Below, one piece after another: positions 21,574 through 48,704 of a stretch of DNA of 64,000 bases. The notes beneath the pieces were generated by a model. It saw only the letters and a program-made list of their open reading frames with translations. It did not search any database and was not told the DNA's origin. Positions within the stretch are counted from its first letter, which is position 1, and each line of letters starts with the position of its first letter. Source of the stretch: Candidatus Aenigmatarchaeota archaeon (GTDB lineage: Archaea; Aenigmatarchaeota; Aenigmatarchaeia; QMZP01; QMZT01). Location: the NCBI GenBank assembly GCA_043808015.1, contig JAZDFI010000008.1, positions 13,271 to 77,270 of the forward strand. The letters are read 5' to 3'. The position numbers and the translations under genes are program-made.

Positions 21574-22953
21574 ATGGACTTCGGTTTCGAGAGCTTCGAT
21601 GCCGGTTTTGCAGGCTTTGACGTGGATGTGGAAGACTTCCATATCAGCAAAAAGAAGAAATACGACAGGATATGGAAGGTTGGTGCTGGCGGCAGCGTGT
21701 GCTCCAAACCTGTCATTGATGGCAATGTAGCTTACTTTGGGTCGCTTGATCATAATGTCTATGCTATTGATTTGAATACCGGCAAAGAGCTTTGGAGATT
21801 AAAGACTAACGGCCTTATACTTGATTCCTCTCCATCTCTGCATGATGGAGTGCTGTTCATCGGAACCTTTGGTCACGACGTTCATGCCATAAACGCTTAT
21901 GAAGGAACCGAGTTGTGGAAATTCCGTGCAGGAGCGGAGATAAACTCCAGACCTCTCGTTTTCAACGATATGGTATTTTTCACGTCAAAGAACGGCTACA
22001 TGTATGCTGTGAGCGAATCCTCTGGAAAGGAGCTGTGGCGCTTCAGGACGGGAGCGGAAATGGTTTCAGCACCGACCCAATACGATGGCAAAATAATAAT
22101 CGGCTCATACGACGGATACCTTTATTGTGTTAATATCGACGGTAAGGAACTCTGGCGCTTCAGAACAGGAGCGGAAATAGAAAATGACGATTATTTTCTC
22201 ATAGATGACGGCATAATATACTTCGGCAGCTTCGACAACAATCTTTATGCCGTGGACATAAAGACAGGCCGTGAAGCATGGCGCTTCAAAACGGGCAAAT
22301 ACGGCAACTGCGGCGTGCCGAGGATGCACAAAAAAGTCATATATTACGGATCGAGGGACGGTATATTCTACGCCATAGACTCCATTACGGGAAAAGAAAC
22401 CTGGCGCTTCAGCACAGGCAAAGAGATAATAGACAAGGGCCCCCTGGTATACAAAAACAAAATCTATTTCGGCGCGGGCGACAACAATGTTTATTGCCTG
22501 AACCTCGAAGGCGAAGAACTCTGGCGCTTCAAGACCAGCGGCGGAGTTTACACGTCTGTAGTTGAGCACAAAGGTACGCTCTACTTCGGCAGCTGGGACT
22601 GCCACCTTTACGCAGTCGATTCAGCTACGGGCAAAGAGGTGTGGCGCTTTGCGACTAGCTCGCTTACGCCAGCGCCGTTGCCGCCTGCATACGAATGCTT
22701 TGAAGTGGAAATCAAAAAAGGCGCTCACATAGAGGACGCGATATCTGAAGAAAAATATTCCAGTAAAAAACACGATCACGTTTCTCTTTCAAACTACCAG
22801 ATAACGAGCGAGTATTCGACTAAGAGCGAATACAAGCAGAAGAGCGATTACGACGCCCATTGGGTAATGTTTGAAGGTATACTAAACGAGGAGGAACTGA
22901 CATGTCTTTCGAATTTGGTGGATTTGAATCAGCGGACTTTGATGTCGAGCTAG
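21574..22953 (+). CDS. 8-bladed PQQ-like beta-propeller repeat protein, paralog 1
   Basis: Eight repeats of G-K-E-L-W-R-F-(R/K)-T-G spaced about 40 aa apart. No signal peptide. Acidic F/D-rich N-terminus. ATG at 21574 (the track start 21565 is GTG). Confidence 0.75.
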   Translation: MDFGFESFDAGFAGFDVDVEDFHISKKKKYDRIWKVGAGGSVCSKPVIDGNVAYFGSLDHNVYAIDLNTGKELWRLKTNGLILDSSPSLHDGVLFIGTFGHDVHAINAYEGTELWKFRAGAEINSRPLVFNDMVFFTSKNGYMYAVSESSGKELWRFRTGAEMVSAPTQYDGKIIIGSYDGYLYCVNIDGKELWRFRTGAEIENDDYFLIDDGIIYFGSFDNNLYAVDIKTGREAWRFKTGKYGNCGVPRMHKKVIYYGSRDGIFYAIDSITGKETWRFSTGKEIIDKGPLVYKNKIYFGAGDNNVYCLNLEGEELWRFKTSGGVYTSVVEHKGTLYFGSWDCHLYAVDSATGKEVWRFATSSLTPAPLPPAYECFEVEIKKGAHIEDAISEEKYSSKKHDHVSLSNYQITSEYSTKSEYKQKSDYDAHWVMFEGILNEEELTCLSNLVDLNQRTLMSS

Positions 22954-24254
22954 AAGATATCGAAATTAAAAGAACGAAAAAATTCGACAGGATGTGGGAA
23001 GTCGGCTTCGGCGGCAGCATCAACAACGGAGTAAGGCTTGTTGACGGCATAATATATTTCGGAGCCATGGACAACTACGTTTACGCTGTCGACGCATCGG
23101 ATGGCAAGGAAGTTTGGAAATTCAGGACAGGCGACGGCATATGCGAAAGCACGCCGGAAGTCTCGGGAGGCATAGTGTACGTCGGTTCTTTTGATCATAA
23201 TCTTTACGCGATTGACGCCAAGACTGGTACGATGAAATGGGCTTTCAGAACAGGCGGCAAGGTAGACGCATCCCCCATCGAAAGCGAAGGGATTGTTTAT
23301 GCCGGCTCAAAGGACTGTTATATCTATGCCGTTGACTGCAAGTCTGGCAAAGAAGTATGGCGCTTCAGAACAGGAGACGAGATAGCCTCGGCTCCGACAC
23401 TCCATGACAACGTGATTTTCAACGGCTCTTTTGACAAGAATTTCTACTGCCTGAACAAGAAAACGGGCAAGGAGATTTGGCGCTTCCGCACTGGTGGGGA
23501 AATACACAACGACAGGCCTTTCCTCGTGGTTAATGAAAGAGTATTTTTCACGTCATTTGACAGCCATCTTTACTGCGCTGATGTTAAAACGGGTAAAGAA
23601 ATATGGCGTTTTAAGACCGGACGATACGGCAACGCTGGTAGTCCTGCGTATAACAACGGAGTCATATATCACGGTTCCAGAGACGGCATATTCTATGCAA
23701 TTTCACATGAAGGCAGAGAGTTGTGGAGATTCAGAACAGAGAGAGATGAACCTATAGACGTAATACCACTGATATACAAAAACAGGATATATTTCGGAGC
23801 AGGTGACGGTAACTTTTATTGTCTTGATCTGAACGGAAAGGAAATGTGGAGATTCAGAGCTTCACACAACATTTACACTTCTGCGGCCGTGTTTAACAAT
23901 GTGATATTTTTCAATTCGATGGATTGCCACTTATATGCGCTGGACGCGGACACCGGAGAGGAAGTGTGGAGATTCGCCACGTCGACGATGACAATCTCAC
24001 CATTACCGCCGCCTTATGCATCCTTCAAACTCGAGGTCCGTAAATCACAAATATCTGAACATTTTGATATCAAAGAAAAATACAAGAAAAGCAAAGAAGA
24101 AACAGTGTCGCTGTCCGATTACCACATCAAAAGCGATTATGCAACAACTAGCGAATACAAGCAAAAAAGCGACTACGACACGCATTGGGTCATGCTCGAT
24201 GAAGTGTTTGCCGACGAACCTGAAATTTTCTGCGGAATTCTGAAGAAAGCCTGA
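22902..24254 (+). CDS. 8-bladed PQQ-like beta-propeller repeat protein, paralog 2
   Basis: Same architecture as paralog 1. The start is preceded by GAGGAGGAA and lies 52 nt inside the 3' end of paralog 1. Confidence 0.75.
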   Translation: MSFEFGGFESADFDVELEDIEIKRTKKFDRMWEVGFGGSINNGVRLVDGIIYFGAMDNYVYAVDASDGKEVWKFRTGDGICESTPEVSGGIVYVGSFDHNLYAIDAKTGTMKWAFRTGGKVDASPIESEGIVYAGSKDCYIYAVDCKSGKEVWRFRTGDEIASAPTLHDNVIFNGSFDKNFYCLNKKTGKEIWRFRTGGEIHNDRPFLVVNERVFFTSFDSHLYCADVKTGKEIWRFKTGRYGNAGSPAYNNGVIYHGSRDGIFYAISHEGRELWRFRTERDEPIDVIPLIYKNRIYFGAGDGNFYCLDLNGKEMWRFRASHNIYTSAAVFNNVIFFNSMDCHLYALDADTGEEVWRFATSTMTISPLPPPYASFKLEVRKSQISEHFDIKEKYKKSKEETVSLSDYHIKSDYATTSEYKQKSDYDTHWVMLDEVFADEPEIFCGILKKA

Positions 24255-41784: not shown

Positions 41785-41865
41785 TCCACGGTCTGGTCAA
41801 AGAGGTGCGGCATTAGCCCCCCGTGATGCAGGGTTAAAATTCGCGCCCTGATCAGAAGGCCATGG
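41785..41865 (+). ncRNA. Candidate small structured RNA, copy 1 of an identical 81-nt element
   Basis: Identical to 51988..52068. Folds by hand into a rod: CCACGG/CCATGG, TCTGGTCA/TGATCAGA, GGTGCG/CGCGCC. AT-rich TATA-like sequence lies upstream and a T-run downstream. The strand is inferred. Confidence 0.4.
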
Positions 41866-41920: not shown

Positions 41921-42277
41921 ATGAAAGTCGTAAAGAAGGATGGAAGAGAGGAAAATTTCGACCATAACAAAATCAAAATAGGCATTGAAAAAGCGGCAGA
42001 GAGGGTTGGTGTCGAAAAGGAAAGAGCTAGACTGATAGCAGAAAAATTGGCGAAGGATGTGGAAAACCATTTAAGAAGCACCGCTACTGAGAGCAATCTC
42101 ACAAGCGTGAAAAGCAGTGATATAAGACATAGGGTCATCGAGGCTCTCGAAAAAGAAGAAAAGACAATCGCCGATTCTTTGAGGGAGTACAAAAAAGAGC
42201 AGACCCACAAACAGAGCCAGGAGCAGATTCACCACACAGAAACAAGAGCAGATCCACAAACAGAAACAAAATGTTAG
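41921..42277 (+). CDS. Stand-alone ATP-cone domain protein
   Basis: MKVVKKDGREENFDHNKIKIGIEKAA... is a typical ATP-cone N-terminus. Strong RBS GGGAGGAG. Low-complexity Q/T/H-rich tail. Confidence 0.7.
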   Translation: MKVVKKDGREENFDHNKIKIGIEKAAERVGVEKERARLIAEKLAKDVENHLRSTATESNLTSVKSSDIRHRVIEALEKEEKTIADSLREYKKEQTHKQSQEQIHHTETRADPQTETKC

Positions 42278-46400: not shown

Positions 46401-47992
<1,592 letters not shown>

Positions 47993-48083: not shown

Positions 48084-48216
48084 GGGCCGATAGATCAGCG
48101 GTAATGCGCGGGCGCAAGCCTGCGGTCGCTTGAGATCGCTCGCTTTGCAAGCGAGAGGCCGTGGGTTCAAATACGCCTTCGGCACGCCGCAGGCGATGGG
48201 AATCCCACTCGGTCCA
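48084..48216 (+). tRNA. tRNA-Ala(UGC) in the 16S-23S spacer, with two non-canonical introns (D-loop and T-loop)
   Basis: Hand fold: GGGCCGA-TA-GATC-AGCGGTAA-[~29 nt]-GATC-G-CTCGC-TTTGCAA-GCGAG-AGGCC-GTGGG-TTCAAAT-[31 nt]-CCCAC-TCGGTCC-A. The G3:U70 Ala identity pair is present. Confidence 0.75.
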
Positions 48217-48668: not shown

Positions 48669-48704
48669 GAAACATTGGCGAGTTGTCCTGACAAAAAGGA
48701 TCTG
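48669..48704 (+). promoter_or_regulatory. 5' arm of the 23S processing stem
   Basis: GAAACAT-TGGCGAGTTGTCC-TGACAAA-AAG-GATCTG pairs with 51817..51855. Helices of 6, 7, 13 and 7 bp are separated by 3-nt bulges (bulge-helix-bulge-like). Confidence 0.7.

Follow-up and report, generated by a model that had tools for sequence, protein, structure and literature searches.

Upstream of the RNase P RNA gene of a member of Candidatus Aenigmarchaeota stands an 81-nt sequence that occurs a second time, unchanged and in the same orientation, 10.2 kb away. Such a sequence could be the gene of a small RNA, a control element of the gene that follows it, a relic of the rRNA operon, or a repeat that has been copied, and the question is which of these it is. 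The window, that is, the whole 64-kb stretch of DNA analysed here, was placed in this DPANN lineage through homologues of its prolyl-tRNA synthetase (ProRS). An earlier note on the same DNA had proposed that the element is a selected, independently transcribed RNA or the result of recent gene conversion, and the first of these is still its most likely interpretation as judged from conservation, covariation and the geometry of promoter and T-run.

Relatives and methods

Loci of relatives, about 20 kb each and about 0.5 Mb (0.53 Mb) in all, were fetched around ProRS homologues, one neighbouring MBL-hydrolase also serving as an anchor. Other relatives were sought by scanning species-representative genomes with a pattern of the element and JGI metagenomes with the 3' end of the 23S rRNA of the clade. 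Folds were tested with RNAfold on single sequences and with RNAalifold as a consensus over ten sequences.

Two identical copies and their neighbours

The 81-mer (TCCACGG...GGCCATGG) matches the window exactly twice, both times on the + strand and with 0 mismatches, and the number of matches expected in shuffled sequence is 0. Identity is lost at the first base beyond each border, and the flanks of the two copies (150 nt upstream, 60 nt downstream) are about 60% identical, which is the background of the aligner. No open reading frame is common to both copies. The identity, the sharp borders and the unrelated flanks that had been reported for the element are thus all borne out. A 12-nt AT-rich stretch upstream is loosely alike in the two copies (AATAACATTAAA versus AATAATAATTGG), probably by chance. 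A search of the window for extra copies, degenerate ones included, with blastn-short, nhmmer and a covariance model returned the two known copies and no others. The features of the locus are collected in Table 1.

Table 1. Features of the two copies and of the stable-RNA gene cluster (window coordinates)
Feature	Position	Strand	Description
Copy 1	41785..41865	+	Exact duplicate, located in a variable island 56 nt upstream of the ATP-cone ORF (41921-42277)
16S rRNA	46401-47839		Rfam match; archaeal rRNA operon
23S rRNA gene	48693..51828	+	Upstream neighbour of copy 2; Rfam LSU_rRNA_archaea, 2477 bits, full-length match
TATA-like box, copy 2	51956..51963	+	TATAAAAA
Copy 2	51988..52068	+	Proposed small RNA gene, ancestral copy, 81-nt core; same post-23S place in 10 distinct relatives
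P1, 5' strand	51988..52002	+	Pairs with 52052-52069; 15 pairs
P2	52007..52025	+	Irregular G-rich/C-run hairpin; 3-bp core GGC/GCC, 4-nt loop
P3	52034..52051	+	GGRY/RYCC stem, AU-rich loop of 9-14 nt; adjoins P1 without linker
P1, 3' strand	52052..52069	+	Bears the conserved A-rich bulge of 3 nt, 52058-52061 (G/A-A-A-G/U region)
T-rich tract after copy 2	52071..52079	+	TTTGTTTCT
RNase P RNA gene	52130..52466	+	Downstream neighbour of copy 2; RF00373, 56 bits, E 1e-14, divergent

Copy 2 lies among genes of stable RNAs, 160 nt past the 23S rRNA gene and 62 nt ahead of the RNase P RNA gene. The 23S gene matches its model over the full length (1-2987) and is followed by a T-run.

Several features of these neighbours are observations in their own right. 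The RNase P RNA of this clade (window 52130-52466; L024, L026, L029, L030) scores 56-82 bits against an Rfam gathering cut-off of 84, and would therefore escape standard annotation. The 16S rRNA gene of the window carries an insertion of about 143 nt (47809-47951) between ...AAGTCGTAA and ACAAGGTAACCG...GGATCACCTCC, and because this insertion is bordered by the inverted repeat GTGACGAGAT/ATCTCGTCAC it is probably an rRNA intron of the bulge-helix-bulge type. The Rfam match to the archaeal small-subunit model ends at 47839, and the true 3' end of 16S, found separately, is near 47990. In the spacer between 16S and 23S, a weak tRNA-like match (48086-48184; 25 bits, under the cut-off) may represent a spacer tRNA that is degenerate or contains an intron. 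At 54658-54766, Rfam identifies a tRNA gene with a 38-nt intron (58.7 bits) that ARAGORN missed. In some relatives (L016/L017, 3768-6716; L017, L018, L023, L034), 16S and 23S are separated by protein genes and a tRNA, and LAGLIDADG endonuclease ORFs lie within the rRNA genes. Elsewhere in the window, at 21900-24200, a unit of about 120 nt (40 aa) is repeated in tandem, and its motif GKELWRF is typical of PQQ-like beta-propeller proteins.

Copy 1 and the ATP-cone gene that follows it lie in an island between an amino-acid permease and a Na+/H+ exchanger, and the gene content of this island is different in every relative. The ATP-cone protein is a stand-alone one of 118 aa, whose sole match among 5.8 billion proteins is itself. 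In 20 kb of the closest relative only the post-23S copy is present, although this locus stops about 1 kb before the site of copy 1 is reached, and a pattern scan of two related assemblies gave one match each. Since these relatives show a single copy, placed after 23S, copy 2 is the ancestral one and copy 1 probably a recent addition in this lineage, as far as assemblies that may be incomplete can tell.

Orthologues after the 23S rRNA gene

Ten distinct orthologues were assembled, namely those of the window, L009/L040/L041, L025, L030, L001, L029, L019, L022, L024 and L026, and the post-23S element was also located in L031 and L032. All orthologues lie 145-232 nt beyond the 3' end of 23S on the strand of the rRNA. 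They are 81-87 nt long and score 78-93 bits with covariance model R1. RNase P RNA follows downstream in all relatives, with an EamA gene intervening in most; the subclade of the window is without EamA, and there the element abuts the RNase P RNA gene. Counted by context, the gene directly downstream is EamA in seven, RNase P RNA in five and the ATP-cone ORF in one.

The element is under purifying selection. In the closest relatives it is 98.8-100% identical, versus 84-89% for the preceding spacer and 85-90% for the following 60 nt, and L009 differs at one position only, where a G-C pair becomes G-U. Between the window and L030, the element is 87.7% identical, whereas the flanks are at the background level of about 65%. 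The RNA is nevertheless restricted to a clade, and is not universal even nearby, because L028, whose 23S 3' end is 93% identical, has no element within 1.8 kb downstream. In more distant relatives, reached through ProRS and the MBL-hydrolase, these anchors are no longer syntenic with the rRNA operon, or else the locus breaks off within 23S.

In relatives of the EamA type (L001 4120-4290, L019, L022, L024, L026, L029, L030), conservation extends, at about 80%, to the spacer that separates 23S from the element. This spacer includes the hairpin CCGCTATCAGCGG and, immediately ahead of the TATA-like box, the inverted repeat ATTTCC...GGAAAT, and it could have a regulatory function or represent another small element.

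Secondary structure

The element had been drawn by hand as an extended rod, built of outer helices CCACGG/CCATGG and TCTGGTCA/TGATCAGA and a middle helix GGTGCG/CGCGCC. All of these helices can form in the window sequence, and RNAfold agrees by giving the rod as the minimum free energy (MFE) structure of that sequence alone (-31.4 kcal/mol, with a modest z-score of -2.17). The comparison of relatives leads to a partly different fold. The RNAalifold consensus of the ten sequences is a three-way junction, in which 90.5% of cells are standard pairs versus at most 46% after a shift of the 3' partners by 1-3 columns. Six of its pairs change on both sides, each of which amounts to one or two evolutionary events because the ten sequences come from about four subclades. 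The covariation score is 0.309 versus 0.192 in shuffles, none of 500 shuffles reaching 0.309, so that the covariation analysis favours the three-way junction. The rod survives in its outer helices, which carry compensatory changes, but not in its middle and apical helices, which are just 75-79% paired and are broken in the L019-type subclade. In L030, a loop change from AUUA to AUCG likewise breaks the rod and leaves P2 intact. For sequences of the window and L001 types, RNAfold gives -32.8 kcal/mol for the rod versus -29.2 kcal/mol for the three-way junction, and since the rod is the MFE structure in two subclades it is possible as an alternative conformer.

The three-way junction with its helices P1, P2 and P3 is supported by compensatory changes. 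In P1, the pairs A4-U79 (AU/GC/GU), G7-C76, U8-G75 (UG/CG), C9-G71 (CG/UA) and G12-U68 (GU/AU/GC) show compensatory or one-sided changes. The helix probably extends by 2-3 further pairs through the flanking GG/CC, in copy 2 to 51986-52071 (GG...CU), for a total of 15-18 bp. Its bulge is present in all ten orthologues (10/10), with A72 and A73 invariant (alignment A2). In P2, two core pairs switch fully between subclades, from GC to CG and from CG to UA (5 versus 6 sequences), and an extension GG.G./CCC with an invariant C-run is seen in single-sequence MFE folds. P3 has 97.7% of its cells paired; G49-C62 becomes A-U in four sequences and U50-G61 becomes C-G in three, and a 3-nt insertion in L026 lengthens the hairpin. 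G49/A covaries also with its partner in the rod model, G21/A, because both changed in the same subclade, and column C62/U covaries with both candidate partners. The many G-U pairs indicate that the + strand is the RNA strand. Invariant nucleotides cluster around the junction, and the peripheral loops and the linker between P2 and P3 are variable.

This alignment also disposes of the idea that GTGATGC and CTGA form a k-turn. GUGAUG is unconserved in four orthologues, which have GGCAAAU, GACAAAU, AAACAU or AGUAAAU instead, and CUGA is base-paired within the covarying helices P3 and P1.

Transcription signals

In 10 of 12 distinct contexts, the motif T[TA]TAAAA[AG] starts 32-35 nt ahead of the element; in L001 and L029 the distance is 44 nt. 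Archaeal TATA boxes stand at a characteristic spacing from the transcription start, and this spacing places the predicted start of copy 2 at GG 51986-51987. The T-rich tract TTTGTTTCT is likely an archaeal oligo-T terminator, judged from its sequence, and nearly all contexts have T-runs downstream of the element, which in most orthologues number at least four T within 5-20 nt. The next T5 after copy 2 (52101-52105) belongs to the promoter region of RNase P RNA. Past the element, the gene that comes next (EamA or RNase P RNA) has a further TATA-like box ahead of it, at a distance suited to a promoter, which suggests that the element and this gene are separate transcripts. The element is therefore predicted to be an independent small RNA gene, with a promoter and a terminator of its own at conserved distance.

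Both copies had been described as having a TATA-like sequence upstream. This applies to copy 2 but not to copy 1, the upstream DNA of which is AT-rich but lacks the conserved box, and the two copies are not equivalent. Copy 2 would then be the working, ancestral gene. Copy 1 would be a recent duplicate of the exact helix-to-helix core, put into a variable island without its native promoter, where it could be either expressed or silent. It could have arisen as an RNA-mediated copy or by a short conversion or insertion.

Search for known RNA families

Neither copy has a match in Rfam 15 at the gathering score or at E<=10, and the orthologues in L024, L025, L026, L029 and L030 have none at E<=10; an overlap with a picornavirus IRES on the minus strand (12.6 bits, E 1.1) is noise. 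With no known family found for either copy, the proposal of a novel small RNA stands, and no description of such an RNA was found in the literature. As for tRNA, ARAGORN reports none in the element, the Rfam tRNA model has no match at E<=10, and there is no cloverleaf. As for 5S rRNA, RF00001 gives nothing at E<=10 on the element or its orthologues, and nhmmer with four archaeal 5S queries finds none in 0.53 Mb.

Other classes were compared with the alignment and rejected. An H/ACA sRNA is contradicted by the lack of a large internal loop, of an ACA after the helix and of a conserved k-loop, and by eye the core sequences of hammerhead, SRP helix 8/S-domain, T-loop, bulge-helix-bulge and H/ACA elements are missing or unconserved. 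Pairing between the P3 loop and an AU-rich region before EamA is a loose complementarity that is inconsistent across subclades, and the same inconsistency applies to Shine-Dalgarno-like purine runs with respect to the 3' end of 16S. Nine bacterial matches to the pattern in the genome collection are due to chance. A pattern scan of viral contigs gave two matches, both rejected by the covariance model.

Alternative explanations

An alternative to an independent gene is that the element is a cis-acting 5' leader of the downstream gene, originally of the EamA/DMT transporter, with a riboswitch-like aptamer and a ligand-dependent stop at the T-run. An EamA start codon does lie about 45-65 nt downstream on the same strand in seven distinct contexts, but EamA is absent in the subclade of the window, where the RNA is still 98.8-100% conserved versus 84-90% for its flanks. 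The genes now found downstream (EamA, RNase P RNA, ATP-cone) are unrelated and do not form one functional class. Because the RNA is kept where EamA was lost and the downstream genes are unrelated, the leader reading is weakened, and we consider it unlikely. The T-run after the element would suit such a stop; however, the TATA-like box GTTTTAAAC about 21-25 nt before the EamA ATG suggests a separate, leaderless mRNA. An alternative pairing joins UGAU-N-CAGG in the linker between P2 and P3 to CCUGAUCA and displaces the top of P1, the two pairings being mutually exclusive, although the covariation of G12-U68 favours the long P1 over this alternative.

The conserved junction core with its variable periphery is aptamer-like, and it recalls the purine, TPP and c-di-GMP-I riboswitches and the hammerhead, by analogy with which a loop-to-bulge clamp between P2 and the bulge of P1 is possible. 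The element nevertheless has none of their core sequences and no Rfam match. Unlike three-way-junction aptamers, it is untied to one downstream gene, and its own T-run is followed by the promoter of the next gene.

Descent from the distal gene of the rRNA operon, a 5S rRNA or tRNA gene cut down to a three-way junction and kept in a ribosome-linked role or put to new use, is in our view also improbable. Genes for 5S rRNA and tRNA sit after 23S in many archaea, and the element lies directly after 23S with a promoter of its own. Like 5S rRNA (RF00001), it is the gene of a small stable RNA after 23S, the fold of which is a three-way junction closed by a terminal helix, and no linker separates the 3' arm from that helix. 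It differs from 5S rRNA in being 81-87 nt rather than about 120 (115-135) nt long. It also differs in having as arms hairpins of 4-7 bp without loops B, C, D and E, in place of the two long arms (II-III and IV-V) that 5S rRNA bears on helix I. These arms are far too short for loop C, loop E, loop D or an anticodon arm, and with nothing at E<=10 from the 5S and tRNA covariance models the descent has no sequence support. The 64-kb window and the approximately 0.5 Mb of related loci yielded no canonical 5S, which would favour descent, but the DNA searched is less than 10% of any one genome and this absence carries little weight. Ordinary 5S genes are present in other Aenigmarchaeota MAGs (PMC8407114), which counts against descent or replacement, and about 98% of complete Nanobdellota genomes have them as well. 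Finally, 5S rRNA contrasts with the narrow distribution of the element, which is absent after 23S in the near relative L028.

Operon-distal tRNAs and tRNA-like processing elements share with the element the place after the large rRNA, a flush terminal helix and a 7-bp outer helix followed by U8, and duplicated tRNA genes share with it the identical copies of mature length in unrelated flanks. In contrast to them, the element has no cloverleaf, anticodon arm or T-loop consensus, and with its own promoter it is predicted to lie outside the pre-rRNA, given the T-run after 23S and the TATA box. Chloroplast 4.5S rRNA is likewise a small RNA encoded right after 23S, and it is the detached 3' end of 23S; the 23S of the window, however, is complete (1-2987), and the element has no similarity to rRNA.

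That the element is a mobile or recombination repeat, whether a MITE-like hairpin, an att site or an artefact of assembly, is most unlikely. Two exact direct copies with sharp borders, one of them in an island that varies between relatives, would be consistent with mobility, but they remain the only two, with none elsewhere in the 0.53 Mb or in viral contigs. No target-site duplication was seen, and no integrase, transposase or other mobile-element gene lies near copy 1. The rRNA operon and ProRS between the copies are ordered as in relatives, and the contig is therefore not chimeric. A generic dispersed repeat, which the earlier note had named as the outcome that would speak against an RNA gene, does not agree with two copies, strictly syntenic orthologues and a covarying structure under constraint.

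A box C/D-like or other k-turn RNA binding L7Ae is hardly credible: although the element is in the size class of archaeal box C/D sRNAs and has GUGAUGC and CUGA in the window, L001 and L030 types (GUGAUGC in 6 of 10 orthologues), these boxes are unconserved, not juxtaposed and, in the case of CUGA, helical, the sequences flanking them are not complementary and no terminal stem joins them, there are no C'/D' boxes and no guide architecture, the candidate guide region being helical or variable between subclades, and there are no tandem G-A pairs beside the 3-nt bulge and no Rfam C/D match.

Proposed nature and significance of the RNA

On balance, the element is probably a clade-specific, independently transcribed and trans-acting structured RNA gene in the rRNA/RNase P cluster, with a folded core that would serve as a platform for binding protein or RNA. 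The basis of this interpretation is the repeat, its synteny, the purifying selection and covariation, the geometry of promoter and terminator, and the lack of a known family. That the RNA is transcribed and acts in trans we infer from the sequence. It would be a transcript of its own of about 85-95 nt, restricted to one Aenigmarchaeota clade, and would take its place in a cluster of stable-RNA genes in the order 16S, 23S, small RNA and RNase P RNA. In the proposed fold, P3 would stack directly on P1, the terminal helix P1 would carry the A-rich bulge, and P2 would be G/C-rich. The conserved junction with variable loops and linker suggests a folded binding platform for protein or RNA rather than an antisense guide.

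From its location and architecture, one might tentatively suppose that the RNA is a protein scaffold connected with translation or with the processing of RNA. A more specific idea is that of a lineage-specific ribosomal or ribosome-assembly RNA at the 5S position, either an extra RNA of the large subunit or, in the extreme, a reduced stand-in for 5S. Mitochondrial ribosomes offer a precedent for swapping 5S for another small RNA, but for the present RNA this idea is very unlikely.

To our knowledge, very few non-coding RNAs of DPANN archaea have been described beyond rRNA, tRNA, RNase P RNA and SRP RNA. The genomes of these archaea are small and keep little that is dispensable. A compact RNA that keeps its fold under strong selection among the genes of stable RNAs is therefore a good candidate for an undescribed component of housekeeping or of interaction with a host. 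The alignment of the element and its structure provide a clean seed for a new RNA family, and the exact helix-to-helix duplication raises the minor question of how these genomes copy RNA genes. Association with the ribosome, if true, would be relevant to the question of how variable cellular ribosomes can be.
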